NCBI GenBank assembly: GCA_955652835.1
Contig: CATPBO010000139.1
Location: 1-57,290, forward strand
DNA: 57,290 nt
Direction: 5' to 3'
DNA from: Candidatus Dormiibacterota bacterium
GTDB lineage: Bacteria; Chloroflexota; Dormibacteria; Dormibacterales; Dormibacteraceae
In this document: piece after piece, positions 31,067 through 39,535 of the stretch
How positions within the stretch are numbered: position 1 is the first letter of the stretch
How the letters are laid out: each line of letters begins with the position of its first letter
The notes under the pieces: generated by a model
What the model was told of the DNA's origin: nothing
Databases searched by the model: none
Seen by the model: the letters and a program-made list of their open reading frames with translations, nothing else
Made by a program: the position numbers and the translations under genes

Positions 31067-31108
31067 TTCGTATTCATCTCCAGCGCGTGGTGGGGTCGTT
31101 TCGCGGCC

Positions 31109-31148
31109 ATGCTAGCAAACTTGCTCTTTCAGTGCAAACCTTTGTTCG
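31109..31148 (-). promoter_or_regulatory. Putative lexA promoter with an imperfect LexA box
   Basis: On the minus strand: TTGCAC (31137-31132), a 17-nt spacer, TAGCAT (31114-31109). The box CGAACAAAGGTTTG (31148-31135) has one half-site degenerate and overlaps the -35. Confidence 0.45.
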
Positions 31149-31155
31149 GTTAAGT

Positions 31156-31184
31156 TTGACATTCGAACGCCCGTTCGGTATGGT
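31156..31184 (+). promoter_or_regulatory. SOS promoter of the LysM gene, with a LexA box in the spacer
   Basis: TTGACA (31156-31161), a 17-nt spacer, TATGGT (31179-31184). The spacer carries the perfect box CGAACGCCCGTTCG (31164-31177). Confidence 0.75.
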
Positions 31185-31197
31185 CAGCGGCGAACAG

Positions 31198-31503
31198 ATG
31201 TACGCCACAGGTTACGGGATCCGCCCGCTCCGCTCCGCCCGCCAGATCCGGCCTCTGGGCCGCCTGGTGGCTGTGATGGTGCTGGCGCTCTCCGTCAGCC
31301 TTGGGCTGGCTGTGGTGGCGCATGGCGGCACTGCGGCGGTGGAGACGACCGTCGTGGTTCAGCCAGGCGACACGATCTGGTCGATTGCCGCACAGCGCTA
31401 CCCGTCGGACGACACTCGGGCTCGAGTTGAAGACATCGAGCGGGCCAACGGCCTGAGCAGCCCGATGATCGAGGCGGGGGAGACTCTGCGCCTGCCGTCT
31501 TGA
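31198..31503 (+). CDS. YneA/ChiZ-like SOS-induced LysM protein (TM helix plus LysM)
   Basis: TM helix 'LVAVMVLALSVSLGLAVVA' followed by LysM 'VVQPGDTIWSIAAQRY...IERANGLSSPMIEAGETLRLP'. The gene is divergent from lexA. ATG 31180 lies inside the predicted -10, so ATG 31198 is preferred (the ORF track begins at 31087). Confidence 0.75.
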   Translation: MYATGYGIRPLRSARQIRPLGRLVAVMVLALSVSLGLAVVAHGGTAAVETTVVVQPGDTIWSIAAQRYPSDDTRARVEDIERANGLSSPMIEAGETLRLPS

Positions 31504-31521: not shown

Positions 31522-31749
31522 GTGGCCGTGGTCCTGATCACCCGCCAGGGCTGTCATCTATGCGACGAGGCGCTGACGGCGCTGCGCTCGCTTGGCGTCG
31601 AGCCTGAGCTGCAGGACGTCGACGCCGACGATCGCCTGCACGATCTGTACGACTTCCGGGTTCCGGTGGTGCTGCTGGACGGGCGGATCGTCGGGGAGGG
31701 CCGAGTCGGCCGTGACGAGCTCCGACGCGCCTTAGACCTCGGCTTCTGA
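31522..31749 (+). CDS. Glutaredoxin-like protein (DUF836 type)
   Basis: 75 aa, with the 'CHLCDEA' redox motif and 'VPVVLLDG'. Confidence 0.7.
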   Translation: MAVVLITRQGCHLCDEALTALRSLGVEPELQDVDADDRLHDLYDFRVPVVLLDGRIVGEGRVGRDELRRALDLGF

Positions 31750-32277
31750 GACGGTGATCACGCATTCAGGGTCTCCCCGATGCATGCAGCGCTCCTCTGA
31801 GATCGTGACCCCGACCCCGTAGTGTGTGGCGGCACCCCTGATGATGCCCTTGGCGAGCGCGCACATCGCACGCTTGGACCTGTACGTGATCGCGACTGAG
31901 TCTGAGCCCGCCCGCTCGGCCTGCAGGGCAGGCGGCTGGGCATTCAGCGAGTTGAGCCTGACCCCGCGATGCACGACGTCTTCTGTATGGAGTAGGAAAT
32001 CCATGAAGCTCCACCGTGGGTTGATCAGGAACCCGTACACCTCGAGCAAGCCCGGCACGAGGGCTTCGCCAAATTCCTCGACGATCACCTGTGGCTGGCG
32101 GCCGGTTTCTGCGACCACGACCCCCACGATCGTCGAGAGCTCGTTGTCCGGGTAGGTGGCGCCCAACTCGTAGCCGCGGTCATCGCGCCCAGTCACGCTG
32201 CGAATGCGAGTCAGGGCGGTCGGGCCCAGCTCCTTTGCTATGTACTTTTCCAGCTCGTCGAAGATGACGCCTTGCAT
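31732..32277 (-). CDS. Stand-alone H-NOX (heme NO/O2-binding) domain protein, copy 2
   Basis: ATG 32277 sits within the longer ORF 31732..32679. 'MQGVIFDELEKYI', 'RWSFMDFLLHTEDVVHRGV' (candidate proximal His), 'ITYRSKRAMC' (YxSxR), and C-terminal 'CMHRGDPEC'. Confidence 0.6.
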   Translation of the reverse strand: MQGVIFDELEKYIAKELGPTALTRIRSVTGRDDRGYELGATYPDNELSTIVGVVVAETGRQPQVIVEEFGEALVPGLLEVYGFLINPRWSFMDFLLHTEDVVHRGVRLNSLNAQPPALQAERAGSDSVAITYRSKRAMCALAKGIIRGAATHYGVGVTISEERCMHRGDPECVITVSEAEV

Positions 32278-32290
32278 CGTGCGCTTCCGG

Positions 32291-32839
32291 CTAGTCGAGA
32301 CCGGCTTCGACCACGAGGACGCAGGCAGGATCGCCTCGAAGCACGCACGCCTCCTCCGTGATGGTGAACTCAACGGCATAGTGCTCGGCCGCACCGAGGA
32401 TGACTCCGCGGACCTCGGAGCATGCGCGGAGTGGAGATTCGTACACGATCCTGACCGTCTGCGGCCCGACGCGCGTCGCGTGAACCTTTGTCGGCTGCGC
32501 GCCCGGCGCGTGCAGGCGGAGGGCTGAGTGCAGCACCGGCTCCATTCCAAGCAGGAAGTCGATAAAGCTCCAGCGCGGATTGACGAGGATGTTGTAGAGC
32601 TTGAACATGTCCGGGACCATCGCCTTGCCGAAACCTTCGAGCACGTCGGCCACCGGCTTGCCGGTGACCTCGGAGGCACGCAGAGCGAGCACCCCGAGCT
32701 CCGCGTCCGGATAGGCTAGGTCGAGGGCGTACTGGTGGGTCGCCGGCCGCCCCGACCCTGTCAGCACCTGAACCCAGGCCGGCTGACCGTACGCGTCGAC
32801 GACGTACATCCGCAGCTCATCCAGAATCACACCCTGCAT
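32291..32839 (-). CDS. Stand-alone H-NOX domain protein, copy 1
   Basis: Paralogous to copy 2 along its whole length. 'MQGVILDELRMYV', 'RWSFIDFLLGMEPVLHSAL', 'IVYESPLRAC' (a variant of YxSxR), 'CVLRGDPAC'. Confidence 0.6.
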   Translation of the reverse strand: MQGVILDELRMYVVDAYGQPAWVQVLTGSGRPATHQYALDLAYPDAELGVLALRASEVTGKPVADVLEGFGKAMVPDMFKLYNILVNPRWSFIDFLLGMEPVLHSALRLHAPGAQPTKVHATRVGPQTVRIVYESPLRACSEVRGVILGAAEHYAVEFTITEEACVLRGDPACVLVVEAGLD

Positions 32840-33089: not shown

Positions 33090-33455
33090 TTAGGCGGAGC
33101 GCTGCAGGGCCGGCTCGCTGTCCAGGCCGCGCATGAAGATCTCCAGCGGCAGCGCCGCTCCCTCGAAGTCCTGGCGCAGCAGCTCCAGGTCGGCGCCTGC
33201 CTGCTGGACGCCTGCGATCGCCAGCTCGATCGTGCGTAAAGCGTCGCGCACGTAGCGCTCCAGCGAGCCGGGAAGCGGACTGGACGCGTTTTCGCGCCTC
33301 CAGGCCTCGCGCACCTGGGCGGCAAGCTCCAGTAGCCTGGCAACCGTCGACCCGGCCATCTGGCGCTCCTGAGGGTCCGACACAAGGCGATTCAGCGCCT
33401 CGTCGAAGAGGCGGATCAGCCGCCGAAGCCGGACCTGGGTGCTCAAAGTACGCAT
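33090..33455 (-). CDS. LexA-box-controlled orphan protein; 121 aa, predicted all-helical, no recognisable domain
   Basis: ORF 33090..33467. The GTG at 33467 abuts the predicted -10, so ATG 33455 is preferred. Strong GC3 bias. I recognise no motif. Confidence 0.6.
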   Translation of the reverse strand: MRTLSTQVRLRRLIRLFDEALNRLVSDPQERQMAGSTVARLLELAAQVREAWRRENASSPLPGSLERYVRDALRTIELAIAGVQQAGADLELLRQDFEGAALPLEIFMRGLDSEPALQRSA

Positions 33456-33467
33456 GTTCGCAATCAC

Positions 33468-33496
33468 AGCATAGCGAACAGGTGTTCGGATTGCAA
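33468..33496 (-). promoter_or_regulatory. SOS-type promoter of the orphan gene, with a LexA box in the spacer
   Basis: On the minus strand: TTGCAA (33496-33491), a 17-nt spacer, TATGCT (33473-33468). The spacer carries the perfect box CGAACACCTGTTCG (33488-33475). The ATG lies 12 nt after the -10, so the mRNA would be near-leaderless. Confidence 0.7.
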
Positions 33497-33589: not shown

Positions 33590-34159
33590 TTGAGACAGCT
33601 CCTCATCACCGCCGGGCTCTTGCTGCCGCTCGCCCTGGACACCTTCGCGCTGGCGGCGGCGCTGGGAATGGCGGGCCTCGAAGCCCGCGATCGACTTCGG
33701 GTGACGCTGGTTTTCACCGCCTTCGAAGCCGGCATGCCGATCGTCGGGCTGCTGATCGGCCGCGCCGCCGGCAGCTTCCTGGGCGTCTGGGCGGGATATG
33801 GCGGAATCGCATTCATTTTCCTGGCAGGCGTGCTTCTCCTGCGACCGGGCCAGGACGAAAAGGACGAGACGCGGAGGCTGAAGCTGCTGGCGCACGCCCG
33901 CGGCCTGGCCATCCTCGACCTAGGGCTCAGCATCAGCGTCGACGAGCTGACGATCGGACTCAGCGCCGGGCTGCTCGGCCTTTCAATCCTGCTGACGGTG
34001 GTCTGGATCGGTGTCCAGGCATTCGTGGCGGCTCAGATCGGACTCAGGCTGGGCAACCGCGTGGCCAAAGAGTTTCGCGAGCGGGCGGAGTGGGTGGCTG
34101 GGGTGGCCCTGATCTTTGTCGCGGTCGCTCTACTGGCACTCAGGCTCGCGAAGCTCTGA
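33590..34159 (+). CDS. mntP: Manganese efflux pump MntP (two DUF204 repeats)
   Basis: 189 aa with 6 TM helices. Repeated motifs 'LALDTFALAAALG' and 'ISVDELTIGLSAG'. Confidence 0.8.
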   Translation: MRQLLITAGLLLPLALDTFALAAALGMAGLEARDRLRVTLVFTAFEAGMPIVGLLIGRAAGSFLGVWAGYGGIAFIFLAGVLLLRPGQDEKDETRRLKLLAHARGLAILDLGLSISVDELTIGLSAGLLGLSILLTVVWIGVQAFVAAQIGLRLGNRVAKEFRERAEWVAGVALIFVAVALLALRLAKL

Positions 34160-35392
34160 CGAGCTGCACCTCTCGAGCACGGCCTCGTAATCGGCCGGAC
34201 CGCGGCGATAGGCGTGGTACGCGCTGACCAACGGGACATAACCCACGCTCACAAGCCGGTCGTACGAAACCTCTTTGAAGTTGCGCCGGCTGTGGACCCC
34301 CGCCACGGCAAAACGCAGCTGCTCCTGGATCAATCCATCCATCCGGCGCAGCGTCGCGTCACTGCTGAGCAGCGGGAAGAACCAGCTCGCCCACGTGAAA
34401 TCGGAGGGCCGGCCGCCGACGCCGAAGAGGCGCCGATTGAGCCTGCGTACGGCGTGCAGCGCGGGATCCTGCCGACGCCGCGCGCGCCTGGCGATGCGCC
34501 GAACACGGCGGCGCAGCTTGCCGACCGTGTTGGTGGCCAGGTCGAGGGCTCCCCGTTCGTATCTCAAGCCGAGGAACTCCCACGGCACGCCCGGAGGGCT
34601 GAGCCTGGTCTTTCGCGCGTTGAGGGCGAGGCCCAGATCCGCCAGGCGCCGCTCGATGTCAGCGCCGTAGCGCGTGATCTCCTGTTCGGTCCCAAAAACA
34701 ACCATGTCGTCCGCGTAGCGCACGAATGGAATCCGCGCCTCCTCGAACGCTGCATCGAGTGGGCGAAGGTAAAGATTGGAAAGGAGCGGCGCGATCGGCG
34801 TGCCGGCCATCACACCTTTATGAGAGTCGCTGATCTGTTCGTCTCCGCTGAGGACGTGTTGATCGCGCAGCGTCTTTGCCAGCAGTTGATGGAGCGGCTC
34901 ATCGTCAGTGATCGTCTGCGGGAGTGACGCGAGCAGCGGCTCCACTGGAATGCTGTTGAAGTAGTCGCGGACATCGAGGTGCAGGCAGTGCAGCTTCTGC
35001 AGTCCACGAATCCCGCGAATTTCCCGGTACGCCGTGCGCGGTCCCCGGCCCGGCTGAAACGAATGGCAGACACGCGAGTGGTCCCGTGCGGTGGTGGATT
35101 GCAAGACCCTGTTGAGACCTTTGAGCAGGAGCTCGTCAGCCAGGGCGAACGTGAAGACGACCTTCTTGCGGCCGTCCGACTTGTTCAGCAGCCGGCGGGT
35201 GGGGGGCCCAAGTGAAAGCACGCCGGCCCCATATTCGTCGACCATCCTCCCCACCTCGCCACCGGCAAGGAGCTCGCGATAAGCAGCGAGCTTGCGGCGA
35301 CCCCAGCGACCGTAGCCGTCGCTTTGAGCCAGCAGGTCATCCCAAAACTCCGCCGAGCTGAGCCGATCGACGGTCGGCGATTCAGTGAGCAA
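34130..35392 (-). CDS. Stand-alone reverse transcriptase (YADD); class not assignable by eye
   Basis: RT motifs in order: 'VVFTFALADELLLKGLNRVL' (1), 'CHSFQPGRGPRTA' (2), 'LHLDVRDYFNSIP' (3), 'GVMAGTPIAPLLSNLYLRPLD' (4), 'FVRYADDMVVFG' (5), 'LALNARKTRL' (6), 'WEFLGLRY' (7). These are followed by a ~130-aa Arg-rich C-terminal region. TTG start with no SD. Confidence 0.85.
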   Translation of the reverse strand: MLTESPTVDRLSSAEFWDDLLAQSDGYGRWGRRKLAAYRELLAGGEVGRMVDEYGAGVLSLGPPTRRLLNKSDGRKKVVFTFALADELLLKGLNRVLQSTTARDHSRVCHSFQPGRGPRTAYREIRGIRGLQKLHCLHLDVRDYFNSIPVEPLLASLPQTITDDEPLHQLLAKTLRDQHVLSGDEQISDSHKGVMAGTPIAPLLSNLYLRPLDAAFEEARIPFVRYADDMVVFGTEQEITRYGADIERRLADLGLALNARKTRLSPPGVPWEFLGLRYERGALDLATNTVGKLRRRVRRIARRARRRQDPALHAVRRLNRRLFGVGGRPSDFTWASWFFPLLSSDATLRRMDGLIQEQLRFAVAGVHSRRNFKEVSYDRLVSVGYVPLVSAYHAYRRGPADYEAVLERCSSSELREPECQ

Positions 35393-35524
35393 GGGAGAGG
35401 TCTTTTTGAAAGACGGTGTAGCCGTCTACACGAACGTACATCGGGCGCCCGCCCTCACAGGTTGTCAAGGCCCGCGGCTGGTCCGCATCGAGGACACCCC
35501 CGAAGGGGTATCTCCCTTGCTCGC
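35385..35524 (-). ncRNA. Candidate structured RNA upstream of and overlapping the RT start codon
   Basis: On the minus strand, GAGCAAGGGAGA (35522-35511) pairs perfectly with TCTCCCTTGCTC (35398-35387) and encloses 112 nt. Inside are a CCCC-UUCG-GGGG hairpin (35509-35496), AGACGG-CUACA-CCGUCU (35427-35411) and GCGG-ACCAG-CCGC (35486-35474). A GATAAT -10-like hexamer (35535-35530) would place the TSS at the base of the stem. Confidence 0.45.
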
Positions 35525-35553
35525 GGATTATTATCCGGGTCAGGAGCACAAGC

Positions 35554-36015
35554 ATGGCATCACAGCAACCGCGACGGAAGAAGGCCGACCTCCTCAATGA
35601 AGGGCTCGCCAGCAGCAGCGGAACGATGGCCGAGCTGAAGAGCCTCGCGTCCTCTCTGAACCTGATGGAGGATCGCTACATGGCGAGGCCGGCCGCCGAG
35701 CTGTTGGTCGAACGCGGAGATCCAGACGCGCCCCAGATCGCACAGGGCCTTGCCGCGACACCAGTGCTTGGACGAGATCCCAACGGCGACCTGTTGCGTG
35801 CCGCCTTCAAGAAGGCTCTCGCCCACGAAGGGATACCAAGCGACATCGACCAGATGGCACGACGGTTTTACGGAGGGCGCGGGCATGGCGGCGCAAGTAA
35901 GCCGCAACCCAGCGCCGCCTCAAAAGTTGATTCGTTCGGTTGGGAGAACCCTGCAGGCGCCTCGACGTCTGGCGGGCTCATGGGCATGATTCGCCGCCTG
36001 TTTGGCGGTGACTAG
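35554..36015 (+). CDS. Hypothetical 153-aa protein, divergent from the RT
   Basis: AGGAG lies 8 nt upstream of the ATG. The protein has a basic N-terminus, a central helical region, a Gly/Ser-rich segment and a C-terminal amphipathic motif 'GLMGMIRRLFGG'. I recognise no domain. Confidence 0.55.
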   Translation: MASQQPRRKKADLLNEGLASSSGTMAELKSLASSLNLMEDRYMARPAAELLVERGDPDAPQIAQGLAATPVLGRDPNGDLLRAAFKKALAHEGIPSDIDQMARRFYGGRGHGGASKPQPSAASKVDSFGWENPAGASTSGGLMGMIRRLFGGD

Positions 36016-36021
36016 GCGGTC

Positions 36022-36822
36022 TTAGCCGATCAGCTCGATCGACAGCTCGTTCCAGGGGTCAAGGTCAGAAGCAAACCGCCCGTATCGGTTGGGCACGAGC
36101 CATACGTGCAGCATCCACGGCGTGAAGTACGTCGCGGAGCCGGCCGGGCAGCCTGGGGCCGCGCCAACCACCTCGCCTCCCGGTGTGAAGCAGAGGTCGT
36201 CGTGACGGTGCCACGGCATCAGCTCGCCGGCCACATCGGGGGGCGCCGCGTTCGGATCCTCCAGCGAGTACATCGCCGCCACCAGCACCGGTCCGTGCAC
36301 TGTGTTCTCATACACGAGCGACTCGACGTGTTGAGGGTCCAGAACCCGGCCGTCCTGCATGTAGGCCGGCTTGACGTAGTGGACGAGCAGCTGGCCGATC
36401 GGGTTGTACGCGATGTAGCCGTCAGCCCTGGCAGCTGCGAGCGACCTGTAGCGCTCCGTCGCCGATTCCGTCTGCTGCCACAGCTGGTTGGCCGCCGCCC
36501 GCTGCTCCGGCGTGCCGGTTGGGAGCCGTGGGACTGTCAGCATCGCGTCCGCGATCCAGCCCACCGAGGCCAGGATCGGCAGCAGCGCCGCCAGGCCCAG
36601 CCACCTGTTCACGCTGCGCCCGATCACCCACGCCGCCGAGCAAGCAGCGACCAGGACCCCGGCCGCGATCAGGTCGTGGGCGGGGATCAGGACGTCCAGC
36701 GGAGACTCGTGCGCGGCGAGCGCCGGATTGGCGCTGTGTATCGAAATGTCCCAGGCCAGGCCGAGGAGAGCCGCGGCGGCGCCGCCGAAGCAAATCAGCA
36801 ACACGGGATTGGCGCGGCTCAT
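36022..36822 (-). CDS. Hypothetical membrane protein (3 TM helices plus a ~170-aa extracytoplasmic domain)
   Basis: ATG 36822 ('MSRANPVLLICFGGAAAALLGLAW') sits within ORF 36022..37044. I recognise no motif. Confidence 0.55.
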   Translation of the reverse strand: MSRANPVLLICFGGAAAALLGLAWDISIHSANPALAAHESPLDVLIPAHDLIAAGVLVAACSAAWVIGRSVNRWLGLAALLPILASVGWIADAMLTVPRLPTGTPEQRAAANQLWQQTESATERYRSLAAARADGYIAYNPIGQLLVHYVKPAYMQDGRVLDPQHVESLVYENTVHGPVLVAAMYSLEDPNAAPPDVAGELMPWHRHDDLCFTPGGEVVGAAPGCPAGSATYFTPWMLHVWLVPNRYGRFASDLDPWNELSIELIG

Positions 36823-36885
36823 TTCGGGAGGATAGTGCCCGCTGATACTTACGTTGGCCGGCTGCGTTAGGTAACCAGGAATCGA

Positions 36886-37092
36886 ATGCCGAACTGGTTG
36901 ACGCACAAACGGATCGTTTTGCTCGGCGTCGTCGCTGTGGTTGTTCTCCTCTGGGCGATCGCCTTCGTGGCACCGCCCGCACGCGAGGTGCATACCTCCG
37001 GCGCAACAGCGTTGAATTTGTCGCTGGTCTACAGCGACGTCCACCTACCCCCGATGTTGGTCCAGCCCAGCCAGTCAATTTCTGATTCCTGA
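36886..37092 (+). CDS. Hypothetical small membrane-anchored protein
   Basis: 68 aa with the TM helix 'IVLLGVVAVVVLLWAIAFV'. Its stop overlaps the next start (TGATG). Confidence 0.4.
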   Translation: MPNWLTHKRIVLLGVVAVVVLLWAIAFVAPPAREVHTSGATALNLSLVYSDVHLPPMLVQPSQSISDS

Positions 37093-37724
37093 TGGACGCT
37101 CAGCCGCGCCACGTTCAGCAGCTTCGTACCCACACGTGGGTCGTTGTGCTCAGCGCCGCAGTCGCTGTGATCATCGAGCTGGCACAGCTGTTGGTCTTGG
37201 CCGAGCTGTGGGTTGTGCCGCAGGCACACGACGTCTACTCGCCCAACGCCATCCCGATCAAGGTCCGGACCGCTGCATCCCAAACGCCCGCGCTGACGAC
37301 AACGGCGAGCGAATCACTCGCTGAGGTTCGCTGCGAGGTCTGGCACGCTGGAGACTGGACTGGTCAGCAGTTCGCGCCCAAAACTGGTCCTTGCCCTGAC
37401 GATGCGACGCTCGAATTGGCCTACTGGCCTCAGTTTTCCCAGAGCCCGAAGACTCTCTACCTGGCGTGGAGGCGCTGCTCGGTCTTCAACGTCGAGTACA
37501 TCGACGTCAACCGAACCTTGATCATCCACTGCTACTCGGCCGGAACCTTGATCCCACCTCTCAGGCTTCCTGGTGTCGTCGCCCAGTCATTTCTCGACCT
37601 TATGGTGGTGCCAACCGACGCCCTCTCGCCTGGAAGCCTCGGCATCATCGAAGACGACCGCGTCGAGCACTTCATCGGCGATTACAGCAGCGAAGTCCTG
37701 CTCGCGACCGCAACGATCTCCTGA
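37092..37724 (+). CDS. Hypothetical membrane-anchored protein with 4 Cys
   Basis: 210 aa with an N-terminal TM helix followed by a soluble domain. It is translationally coupled to the preceding ORF. The DNA is visibly more A/T-rich than the core genes. Confidence 0.5.
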   Translation: MDAQPRHVQQLRTHTWVVVLSAAVAVIIELAQLLVLAELWVVPQAHDVYSPNAIPIKVRTAASQTPALTTTASESLAEVRCEVWHAGDWTGQQFAPKTGPCPDDATLELAYWPQFSQSPKTLYLAWRRCSVFNVEYIDVNRTLIIHCYSAGTLIPPLRLPGVVAQSFLDLMVVPTDALSPGSLGIIEDDRVEHFIGDYSSEVLLATATIS

Positions 37725-37727
37725 CCT

Positions 37728-38327
37728 CTAAGGGGCGAAGATCCGGCAGAGGCTTTCCGACAGCGACTCCGCATCGGCGCCCGGGTGGGTCAGGTAGTAG
37801 CCCACGGCGTCGCTGACCGCCCCCACGACGGCGCGACCGAAGACCTGCGGATCCTTGTCAGCATAAAAAGGATCGTGAACCGTGGCATGGCGGACCTCCT
37901 CGGCCACCGCGTCCGCGAACTGGCTCTGCAGCTCCTGTCGAACTCTATCGACGCCCGCGCTGAGGCCCACCGACTCCACGATCAGCAGGCGCGCGACCGA
38001 CGACCGGTCGAAGCACGACCGCACGAAAGTGGTGATGCCCAGCCGAAGCCTCTCGTGGTGGTTGCGACCCAGCGCCGCTTCCGCGAGCACGTCATCGATC
38101 AGCGATCCACCTTCATGCGACAGCAGCTCGCGGAAGCAGTCCTCCTTCGACGTGAAGAACTCATAGAACGCAGACTTGGACACCTTGGCCCGCTCCACGA
38201 CCTCTTCGACCGAGGTCGCGTTGTAGCCAAGCGTGGCGAACAGGTCGAGGGCGGCGCTGGCGATCCGCCTCCGGCGCCTCTCCAGCCTTACGTCTTTCCG
38301 CAGCTGGGCGCCGGACGCTGTCGCCAT
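37728..38327 (-). CDS. TetR-family transcriptional regulator
   Basis: ATG 38327 ('MATASGAQL..'). HTH 'ASAALDLFATLGYNATSVEEVVERAKVSKSAFYEFFTSKEDCF'. Confidence 0.85.
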   Translation of the reverse strand: MATASGAQLRKDVRLERRRRRIASAALDLFATLGYNATSVEEVVERAKVSKSAFYEFFTSKEDCFRELLSHEGGSLIDDVLAEAALGRNHHERLRLGITTFVRSCFDRSSVARLLIVESVGLSAGVDRVRQELQSQFADAVAEEVRHATVHDPFYADKDPQVFGRAVVGAVSDAVGYYLTHPGADAESLSESLCRIFAP

Positions 38328-38332
38328 GCTCT

Positions 38333-39535
38333 TTAGCTCTTGGCCAGTGCCCGCGAGATGACGATGCGCTGGATCTCGCTGGTGCCCTCGAACAGGGTGT
38401 AGATCTTGGCGTCCCGGTGCCACTTCTCAACCGGGAAGTCGCGGATGTAGCCGTAGCCGCCGCAGATCTGGATCGCCTGCTCCGTGACCTTGACCGCGAC
38501 CTCGCCGGCCTTGAGCTTGGCCATCGAGCCCTCTGCCTTCTTGAACTCGCCACCGTTGCGGCCTTCCCAAAGCGCACGCCAGATCAGGGCGCGGGTCGCC
38601 TCGATCTCGGTCGCCATGTCCGCGAGCATGAATGCGATCGCCTCGTTCTCGATCAGGGCCCGGCCGAACTGCTTGCGCTCCTTCGCGTACGCGAGCGCGA
38701 ACTCGAACGCCGCGCGGGCGATCCCCAGCGCCTGTGCACCGACGATCGGGCGCGAAAGCTCGAACGTCTTGAGCGCGACCGACGACCGGGAGTGAGTGCC
38801 CTCGCGAGCTCGGGCAAGCTTGGCCTCGAGCTTCTCCACGCCACCCAGCACGTTCTCGGCCGGGATCGTGCAGTCCTCGAGCAGCACCTCGGCGGTGTGC
38901 GAGGCCCGGATGCCCATCTTCTTTTCCTTCTTCCCCATGCGCAGGCCCTTGGTGCCGGGCCCGACGACAAAGCTCGCCTGGCCTCGCGTGCCGAGCTCGG
39001 GCTCGACCGCAGCCACCACGACGTGCACGTCGGCGATGCCTCCGTTGGTGATGAAGATCTTCTGGCCGTTGATCACCCAATCGCCGTTCTTCCGAATGGC
39101 TCGCGTCTTCATCGAGGAGACGTCCGAGCCGGCGTCGGGCTCCGTCACAGCAAAAGCTCCGAGGGCCGGCTTCTCGACGGTGCCGAAGCAAGCCGGGATC
39201 CAGGTTGCGATCTGCTCAGGAGTCCCCTGGGAGAATATCGCGGCGATGGGCAGGCCGGTGCCTTGGATGGCGAGTGCGATGCCGGCGCAGCCCCAGGTCA
39301 GCTCCTCCGCGACCAGCGCGGGCATGATCCCGGTGCTGTCGCCGTAGGTCTGCTGGAGGAACTCGACTCCATAGAGGCCGACCTCGGCCGCCTTCTTGAC
39401 GATCGGCCACGGGAACTCTTCTGCCTCGTCGTACTGGTGAGCCACGGGGCGGATCTCTTTTTCCGCGAAGCTGTGCACCCAGTCCCGGATCTCACGCTGC
39501 TCGTCGCTTAGCTCAAACGAAACCATTTCCGCCAT
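38333..39535 (-). CDS. Acyl-CoA dehydrogenase
   Basis: 'FAVTEPDAGSD', 'ITNGG', 'QICGGYGYIRDFPVEKWHRDAKIYTLFEGTSEIQR'. ATG 39535 has AGGAG upstream (the ORF track starts at TTG 39553). Confidence 0.9.
   Translation of the reverse strand: MAEMVSFELSDEQREIRDWVHSFAEKEIRPVAHQYDEAEEFPWPIVKKAAEVGLYGVEFLQQTYGDSTGIMPALVAEELTWGCAGIALAIQGTGLPIAAIFSQGTPEQIATWIPACFGTVEKPALGAFAVTEPDAGSDVSSMKTRAIRKNGDWVINGQKIFITNGGIADVHVVVAAVEPELGTRGQASFVVGPGTKGLRMGKKEKKMGIRASHTAEVLLEDCTIPAENVLGGVEKLEAKLARAREGTHSRSSVALKTFELSRPIVGAQALGIARAAFEFALAYAKERKQFGRALIENEAIAFMLADMATEIEATRALIWRALWEGRNGGEFKKAEGSMAKLKAGEVAVKVTEQAIQICGGYGYIRDFPVEKWHRDAKIYTLFEGTSEIQRIVISRALAKS

Follow-up and report, generated by a model that had tools for sequence, protein, structure and literature searches.

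The contig CATPBO010000139.1 of a Candidatus Dormiibacterota bacterium (assembly GCA_955652835.1) is a stretch of 57,290 nucleotides (nt), which was analysed at its full length and is here called the window. This report addresses a compact unit of about 1.9 kb at 34.1-36.0 kb, in which a reverse transcriptase (RT) gene, a structured RNA and the gene of a small protein, p153, lie side by side. An earlier note, made by a model from the letters of the window, had proposed the unit as a candidate retroelement or defence module. The unit is defined by four features:

34130..35392, minus strand: UG26-type RT gene, a 420-amino-acid (aa) open reading frame (ORF) with a TTG start and the YADD codons at 34706-34717
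35383..35526, minus strand: RT-5-like structured non-coding RNA (ncRNA), or 5' leader of the RT transcript, about 146 nt with seven helices, matched by the covariance model R1 at 155.8 bits
35530..35535, minus strand: -10-like box GATAAT, 7 nt upstream of helix 1, which reads TATTAT towards the 153-aa gene
35554..36015, plus strand: gene of p153, a clade-specific partner of 153 aa, divergent from the RT and ending in GLMGMIRRLFGGD

The RT ORF carries the motifs LHLDVRDYFNSIP, GTPIAPLLSNLYL, VRYADDMVVFG and WEFLGLRY, and its C-terminal third is rich in Arg. Pfam agrees with the earlier note on this point, as RVT_1 is matched at E=3.6e-19 and is the sole Pfam domain found. The YADD is unchanged across a 16-sequence RT alignment (53-87% identity), and among the 120 RT homologs listed the ORFs are intact and the catalytic residues invariant. 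The description of the RT as an unclassifiable orphan has to be given up. The PADLOC profile RT_UG26 is its best profile and matches over the full length (E=5.6e-88, 293 bits, residues 8-396 against positions 4-396 of a 398-position model), and the next specific group, UG17, reaches 106 bits (E=6.6e-31). RT_UG26 is likewise the best, full-length profile in all clades tested. Canonical UG26 members score 483-520 bits, with locus L079 at 520, versus 293 bits for the window RT, and by these profile scores the window RT belongs to a divergent UG26 subclade.

UG26 is a Class 2 group of the UG/Abi RTs, defined in 2022 from 35 members (Mestre et al., PMC9226505). A Vsr-like (COG2852/YcjD) endonuclease adjoins 9 of the 35 members and is the only neighbour reported, and the paper describes no RNA for the group (PMC9226505). 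No extra known domain is fused to the RTs of this class, and the window RT agrees, with RVT_1 alone in Pfam and an AlphaFold model made of an RT core and a helical C-terminal region (predicted local distance difference test score, pLDDT, 88.4; predicted template modelling score, pTM, 0.82). In length (about 400-420 aa), in this RT core with a helical C-terminal region and in the lack of an extra enzymatic domain, the window RT resembles UG26. The Vsr-like endonuclease was not found among the window neighbours, where the 153-aa ORF and a 340-aa ORF have no Pfam, NCBIfam or PADLOC match, a 210-aa ORF has no Pfam match, and MntP matches its own family only; the window unit differs from UG26 in having the 153-aa partner in place of the YcjD endonuclease. 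The family is not small: a profile search over 1.84 billion cluster representatives gave 301 that reach E<=1e-30.

The fold of the RT was compared with those of known classes by template modelling (TM) score. The best match, over the full length, is the group II intron GsI-IIC RT (0.75), followed by G2L4 (0.68), DRT9 (0.53-0.58), DRT2 (0.50) and the retron RTs (0.40-0.45). PDB sequence searches rank the classes in much the same way, with a group II intron RT best at 97 bits, then G2L4, and DRT9 and DRT2 at 45-48 bits. The top NCBIfam match is the group II intron RT/maturase family TIGR04416, at 110.9 bits with a cutoff of 300, and the NCBIfam retron and DRT equivalog cutoffs are not reached (41 bits versus 235 for the retron family NF038233). 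The PADLOC retron RT models give E-values of about 1e-8 to 1e-18, well behind UG26.

The RT gene and the 153-aa gene are separated by a non-coding gap of 161 nt (35393..35553). The single-sequence fold of this gap, compared with shuffled controls, has z=-3.7, and about 135 nt from the GATAAT box to the RT start are nearly invariant in eight close genomes, while the flanking coding DNA diverges. A metagenome scan with the RT alignment supplied 69 more loci, with RT identities of 31-89%. The first covariation set held 27 non-redundant elements and supported a structure of 39 pairs, of which 14 show compensatory changes; 99% of cells were paired, versus 38-51% when the partners were slid. In a broader set of 35 sequences, covariation extends to 27 of the 39 pairs, with pairing in 97% of cells. 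Slid-partner controls across both sets stay at 38-56%, and none of 500 shuffles matches the observed values. The structured segment that the earlier note placed before the RT is real. Its parts, all on the minus strand and listed from 5' to 3' of the RNA, are as follows:

35512..35522, minus strand: 5' arm of helix 1, the basal or closing stem, GAGCAAGGGAG, which pairs with 35387-35397
35495..35510, minus strand: helix 2, hairpin UACCC-loop-GGGUG, with 3 of 5 pairs covarying and 100% of cells paired
35430..35486, minus strand: long arm of helices 3-5, with the invariant internal loops CGGAnCAGC / GUAC and an invariant G-U pair
35412..35426, minus strand: helix 6, hairpin GACGG-CUACA-CCGUC, with 5 of 5 pairs covarying (35 sequences)
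35400..35414, minus strand: helix 7, hairpin GUCUU-UCAAA-AAGAC, which presents a conserved UUCAAA-type loop
35387..35397, minus strand: 3' arm of helix 1, CUCCCUUGCUC, which includes the RT TTG start codon at 35390-35392

Across clades, 9 of the 11 pairs of helix 1 covary, for example GCAAGGGAG/CUCCCUUGC against GCGGGAGGG/CCCUCCCGC, and so do all 5 pairs of helix 4. The mean best stem of helix 7 is 4.36 base pairs (bp), versus 3.15 +/- 0.17 in shuffles. Its arms vary over the clades yet stay complementary, with about 8 pairings that include CCGU/ACGG, CCGG/CCGG, CCAG/CUGG, GGGA/UCCC, GGC/GCC and CGC/GCG. Since the 3' arm of helix 6 doubles as the 5' arm of helix 7, three segments form a potentially bistable element, of which segments 1 and 3 are partial direct repeats that flank about 17-24 nt. 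The conserved tracts CCUCG and UUCAAA are unpaired.

The strand of the RNA is that of the RT. A single G-U pair is kept in all 35 sequences of the broader set, many other pairs alternate G-U with G-C or A-U, and R1 scores 115-162 bits in the RT sense versus at most 34 bits in antisense (23 bits in the window); together these establish the RT-sense strand. The same three observations rule out a plus-strand 5' untranslated region of p153, which was considered as a candidate. A full-length R1 match adjoins every RT of the family that was examined with flanking sequence, and it lies upstream of the RT everywhere except at locus L075, where it lies downstream. R1 reaches loci with RT identities of 39-44% under default filters and of 31-34% with filters off. 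The 39-44% identity clade was left out when R1 was built, and is still matched at E=1e-6 to 1e-10. R1 gives no match in nine unrelated RT loci, and the element is single-copy in the window. At RT identities of at least 59%, conservation of the RNA core exceeds that of the RT coding DNA by 10-20 percentage points (84% versus 67% at L019); this margin is gone in more divergent clades (about equal at L017, L045 and L078).

The GATAAT box is a putative promoter element. It is invariant in the close-genome alignment A1, and a counterpart that reads CATAAT, TAGAAT or TAGCGT precedes helix 1 by 7-10 nt in most of the clades examined; a strict sigma-70 promoter scan gave no match. Because of this -10-like box just before helix 1, the RT transcript probably begins with the RNA.

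No known RNA family reaches its Rfam gathering score anywhere in the window. In a permissive search, the Rfam RT-5 motif (RF03026) aligns at 35398-35499 on the minus strand over its whole 104-nt model (1-104), with 27.5 bits and E=0.0016. Its gathering score is 45.7 bits, so Rfam would not annotate the window RNA. On the canonical UG26 loci L079 and L087, RT-5 scores 88.9 and 72.5 bits at the same positions as R1. In the reverse direction R1, built from the window clade, recovers the RT-5 sites at L079 (E=4e-7), at L087 (E=6e-4) and, with filters off, at L075. Since RT-5 passes its threshold on canonical UG26 loci at the R1 positions, the RT-5 motif is the UG26 RNA, and the window RNA, as aligned by these models, is a divergent member of the motif. 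These two canonical loci thus hold the homologous RNA in the same position as the window. The earlier note had credited the RT with an RNA element of its own. A co-conserved RNA does exist, but it is a divergent relative of a catalogued family.

RT-5 is one of 19 'RT motifs' published in 2017, to which no function was assigned (Weinberg et al., PMC5737381). No publication was found that names RF03026 or the RT-5 motif, or that ties RT-5 to UG26. The window RNA and RT-5 share their strand and their position relative to the RT gene, as well as the long arm with its GGAnCAGC / GUAC loop, helix 6 and a UUnAAA tail. Three elements with covariation support in the present alignments have no counterpart in the Rfam model, namely helix 1 at the base, helix 7 and the 5' half of helix 2.

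The relation between the RNA and the RT start codon differs among clades. In the window and in most p153-bearing clades, the start codon lies within or right after the 3' arm of helix 1, a very stable helix of 11 bp. At L078 a gap of about 90 nt separates the RNA from the RT start, and the arm's TTG is not in the RT reading frame; the arm has no TTG at all in the distant clade. At L075, a near-canonical UG26 locus (RT at 353-1609), the RNA is found at 1635-1796, downstream of the RT and 26 nt past its stop codon. The next gene at L075 is a superfamily 1 (SF1) helicase (AAA_11/AAA_12, UvrD_C_2). Start-codon sequestration as a universal feature is ruled out by L078, L075 and the distant clade. 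The downstream RNA of L075 and the gap at L078 make the RNA a separable partner, and not merely a device that hides a start codon. Autoregulation of the RT may occur in some clades.

The third component, p153, has 175 homologs, and its Shine-Dalgarno sequence and start are conserved. AlphaFold models a confident six-helix domain over residues 10-107, then a linker that is disordered and, at the C-terminus, a short helix, so the divergent gene and the terminal GLMGMIRRLFGGD pointed out by the earlier note are well founded. No match to p153 was found in Pfam, PADLOC, NCBIfam, PDB sequences or Foldseek. The p153 profile finds a divergent adjacent homolog at every locus with an RT identity of at least 51% and upstream DNA (about 38 loci), and the identities of p153 and RT fall in step (85/88, 74/80, 56/59 and 35/54%). 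Co-conservation among RT homologs, which the earlier note had proposed as a check, came out positive for both elements: the upstream RNA is kept beside every family RT examined with flanking sequence, and the 153-aa gene is kept at RT identities of at least 51%.

The family C-terminus of p153 reads ...G(I/L)(L/M)G-x-IRRLFGG, with a terminal (K/R)(K/R)LFGG. This tail resembles the C-terminus of Escherichia coli MinD, which in the K-12 record reads ...KKGFLKRLFGG. The C-terminal segment of MinD is a membrane-targeting amphipathic helix (PMC8155659). The resemblance suggests that p153 is a membrane-directed effector or regulator.

Two side observations concern the partner proteins. At L022 (ORF start 602), L046 (900) and L054 (1182), the p153 homologs end after about 108-110 aa with ...RRFYGGRR and are without the linker and the RRLFGG helix; this shortening may be natural variation or may come from frameshifts that assembly errors introduced. 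In the clade at 39-44% identity, a conserved ORF of about 187 aa (MGFLDKAKK...) converges on the RT 3' end (L060 4428-4994, L068 4181-4738 and L071 2991-3554, all minus strand). Neither Pfam nor PADLOC gives a match for this ORF, which may encode the partner protein of that clade. A comparison of p153 with this 187-aa neighbour found no homology.

All RT homologs with a named source are from Candidatus Dormibacterota, and among the matches listed they are 54-88% identical to the window RT. In seven of seven species-level genomes selected by their RT, the gene order is kept: ECH-ACAD-TetR-(variable genes)-p153, then divergently RT-(MntP)-orf125-...-Grx-LysM-LexA. Such perfect synteny resembled vertical core inheritance, and it was therefore tested with the neighbouring gene orf125 as an RT-independent anchor. 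Four long Dormibacteraceae contigs chosen through orf125 have the same flanks with no RT and no p153, and they are as close to the window as the RT-bearing genomes are (ACAD 92-98%, LexA 88-97% identity). No remnant of the module was found in these four genomes, either in the gene tables, by tblastn or by an unfiltered covariance search, whose best score was 13 bits. A vertically inherited 'housekeeping' RT is ruled out by these genomes. The module is accessory cargo, polymorphic for presence and absence, as the earlier note had supposed. Additionally, RT homologs at about 54% identity that lie in unrelated surroundings (LysR ... glyoxalase, Lhr helicase) still carry the RNA and the small divergent gene. 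As all three are kept in an unrelated neighbourhood, the RT, the RNA and p153 travel as a unit.

The module occupies a slot of variable cargo (34160-37727) between the TetR gene (37728-38423) and orf125, as seen against L089-L092. In related genomes the slot holds MntP, a S-adenosylmethionine (SAM) methyltransferase, haem-NO-binding (HNOB) genes, a 340-aa and a 210-aa ORF, the RT module, or nothing; no integrase or flanking repeats were seen at it. MntP (33590-34159, plus strand) overlaps the RT 3' end by 30 nt (34130-34159). Over its last approximately 18 residues, MntP fails to align with its homologs in RT-lacking genomes, and these residues overlap the RT end, which suggests an insertion junction within the MntP 3' end.

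Characterised relatives of these RTs offer a model of what the module might do. DRT2, DRT9 and DRT10 each combine an RT with a structured ncRNA in which a short template loop is copied repeatedly (PMC12632851; 10.64898/2026.04.29.721553). In Class 2 UG systems a stable stem-loop precedes the template on its 5' side, and the RNA needs its basal stem (PMC12632851; 10.64898/2026.04.29.721553). DRT10 (UG17) consists of an RT, an ncRNA and a SLATT protein, and makes tandem-repeat complementary DNA (cDNA) in a telomerase-like manner (PMC12632851; 10.64898/2026.04.29.721553). The window unit resembles DRT10 in several respects: UG17 is the second-best specific PADLOC profile of its RT, an RT is combined with a multi-hairpin ncRNA of about 140 nt with a basal stem and with a small, putatively membrane-directed partner, and a conserved unpaired tract lies 3' of a stable stem-loop. 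It differs in that its RT is of another group, no neighbour matches SLATT in Pfam or PADLOC, and p153 has no transmembrane segments, only a putative amphipathic helix at the C-terminus. The gene order also differs, with a divergent partner and the RNA directly 5' of the RT. With DRT9 (UG28) and DRT2 (UG2) the unit shares the ncRNA immediately 5' of the RT, the Class 2 UG lineage and a partial similarity of fold (the TM scores given above). The window RNA is, in contrast, without the poly-U template tract of DRT9 and without the long looped template of DRT2, the module adds a conserved protein partner, and the sequence similarity to these RTs is low.

On these analogies, we propose a mechanism. 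Transcription would start at the GATAAT-type promoter, at the base of the RNA of about 146 nt; the basal stem would close a junction of hairpins, and the transcript would continue into the RT gene. The RT would bind its own leader RNA to form a ribonucleoprotein (RNP) and would make cDNA from a short stretch within this RNA, probably in repeated rounds, as DRT2, DRT9 and DRT10 do. The best template candidate lies around the UUCAAA loop and the three-segment element of helices 6 and 7, which directly follows the long stable arm on its 3' side. The divergent p153 would join as a third component in the Dormibacterota-type clades, directed to the membrane through its MinD-like helix. The module would serve conflict or defence, not housekeeping, a role that is suggested by its patchy presence at one chromosomal site. 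This account, in which a UG26 RT-ncRNA RNP makes RNA-templated cDNA, p153 acts as a clade-specific membrane-directed effector or regulator and the module has an accessory conflict or defence role, is given moderate credence, slightly above even. It is favoured because UG26 shares its Class 2 lineage, RNA size and basal stem with the characterised systems, and also has conserved unpaired tracts and a three-segment element 3' of its long arm.

Several results weigh against this account. The RT is nearer to group II intron RTs than to DRT9 and DRT2, by sequence (97 bits) and by fold (TM 0.75). Mestre et al. graded the defence prediction for UG26 'inconclusive' (PMC9226505), PADLOC finds no known defence genes flanking the module, and searches of plasmid, phage and IMG/VR contigs with the RT returned no relatives. 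The p153 profile finds nothing in the 39-46% identity clade or at canonical UG26 loci, and some p153 homologs are without the tail. A hydrophobic-moment test of the p153 tail was not distinctive, since 20% of shuffles reach the observed value; as the test does not discriminate, membrane targeting is proposed from the resemblance of the motifs. A DRT10-like A-B-A' direct-repeat template was sought in the RNA, and proved inseparable from hairpin complementarity: the three-segment element of helices 6 and 7 fits both readings alike, and L043 slightly favours pairing. The earlier note had staked its proposal on an RT outside every characterised class. Taken strictly the RT is outside, as UG26 is named, but carries that inconclusive grade and has no RNA, product or mechanism reported for it.

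A bolder version of the proposal can be put forward tentatively. In it, the UG26 RNP makes a defined, possibly tandem-repeat cDNA from the bistable helix 6/7 element, p153 is a new type of effector with a MinD-like helix for membrane targeting, and together they form a new DRT-type system. We regard this version as possible rather than expected. If true, an uncultured phylum would harbour a new system of the DRT type, distinct in its product and in its effector logic. DRT2, DRT9 and DRT10 each revealed an unexpected route from a small RNA to DNA, one of them telomerase-like. ncRNAs are already expected for Class 2 UG RTs, and nothing found here contradicts current models. What is new is the tie between UG26 and the RT-5 RNA, which is extended by a basal stem and a UUCAAA hairpin, the recognition of a clade with a third, undescribed protein component, and the gain and loss of the module at one site.

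The strongest rival explanation takes the RNA as a cis-regulatory leader. The RT would bind the stem that holds its start codon and repress its own translation, and would have a host function, such as DNA repair, without copying the RNA. Precedents exist among the group II intron RTs and G2L4, which are the top sequence and structure matches of the window RT. In the domain IVa of introns, the RNA bound by the RT includes the RT's own translation start, and the window RNA may resemble this arrangement; LtrA, a group II intron protein, represses its own translation at domain IVa, and the G2L4 RT acts in DNA repair. The start codon in or right after the 11-bp helix, in the window and most p153-bearing clades, fits such a leader, as does the location of the module near lexA and a gene with an SOS box. 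However, the RT start codon does not overlap the RNA in the distant clade, at L078 or at L075, and the SOS-box gene is also found in RT-lacking genomes. A seven-helix RNA of 146 nt with invariant loops, in a family of 301 representatives, exceeds the needs of an operator, and the patchy distribution speaks against housekeeping repair. We consider this explanation unlikely, and the RNA-templated cDNA account is kept as the favoured one.

A retron-like system would read the closing repeat as a1/a2 and the hairpins as msr/msd, with branched multicopy single-stranded DNA (msDNA) primed from an RNA 2'-OH. An RNA closed by an 11-bp inverted repeat with the RT immediately after it has this appearance, and the discoverers of RT-1 to RT-19 speculated that many of these motifs belong to retrons (PMC5737381). 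The RT itself speaks otherwise: it falls far short of the NF038233 cutoff, the PADLOC retron models stand far behind UG26, and retron RTs show the lowest fold similarity of the RT classes compared. No known type of retron effector is adjacent. A retron is therefore a distinctly improbable reading of the module. A degenerate or domesticated group II intron, or another mobile retroelement remnant with no present module function, finds some footing in the top NCBIfam match, the GsI-IIC-like fold and the NCBI label 'reverse transcriptase/maturase family protein' on homologs, but we think it very improbable indeed, given a TIGR04416 score far under the cutoff, no group II intron RNA at the Rfam gathering score in the window, no intron RNA domains, no endonuclease domain, no conserved RNA 3' of an RT whose end overlaps MntP, a fixed and single-copy site instead of dispersed copies, intact ORFs with invariant catalytic residues in the 120 listed homologs, and a strongly constrained RNA. 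A diversity-generating retroelement (DGR) is excluded, because no template or variable repeats are present; only two weak chance repeats of 32-34 nt were found within 29-41 kb. The earlier note was likewise right in reporting no Cas1, nitrilase, SLATT, DGR repeats or group II intron RNA.

Other features of the neighbourhood are the following:

36022..37044: 340-aa ORF, with no Pfam, NCBIfam or PADLOC match
37092..37724: 210-aa ORF, with no Pfam match
33090..33467, minus strand: orf125, a LexA-box gene with the Cheo-type box GAACAGGTGTTC at 33476-33487, directly upstream

The gene orf125 has 581 homologs and no family match, and its counterpart at L090 has the box CGAACAGGCGTTCG followed by TACAAT. 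Judged by these boxes, it is probably SOS-regulated. The earlier note had counted this LexA-box gene as context of the RT. The box is there, but the gene is unrelated to the module, since orf125 also occurs in RT-lacking genomes. Further along, tandem HNOB/V4R genes (31732-32839, minus strand) form a pair that is present in only some of the related genomes. A second GAACN4GTTC box stands at 31165-31176, just inside the 5' end of a LysM-domain ORF (31087-31503) and about 100 nt from the divergent lexA start, and its position fits autoregulation of lexA.

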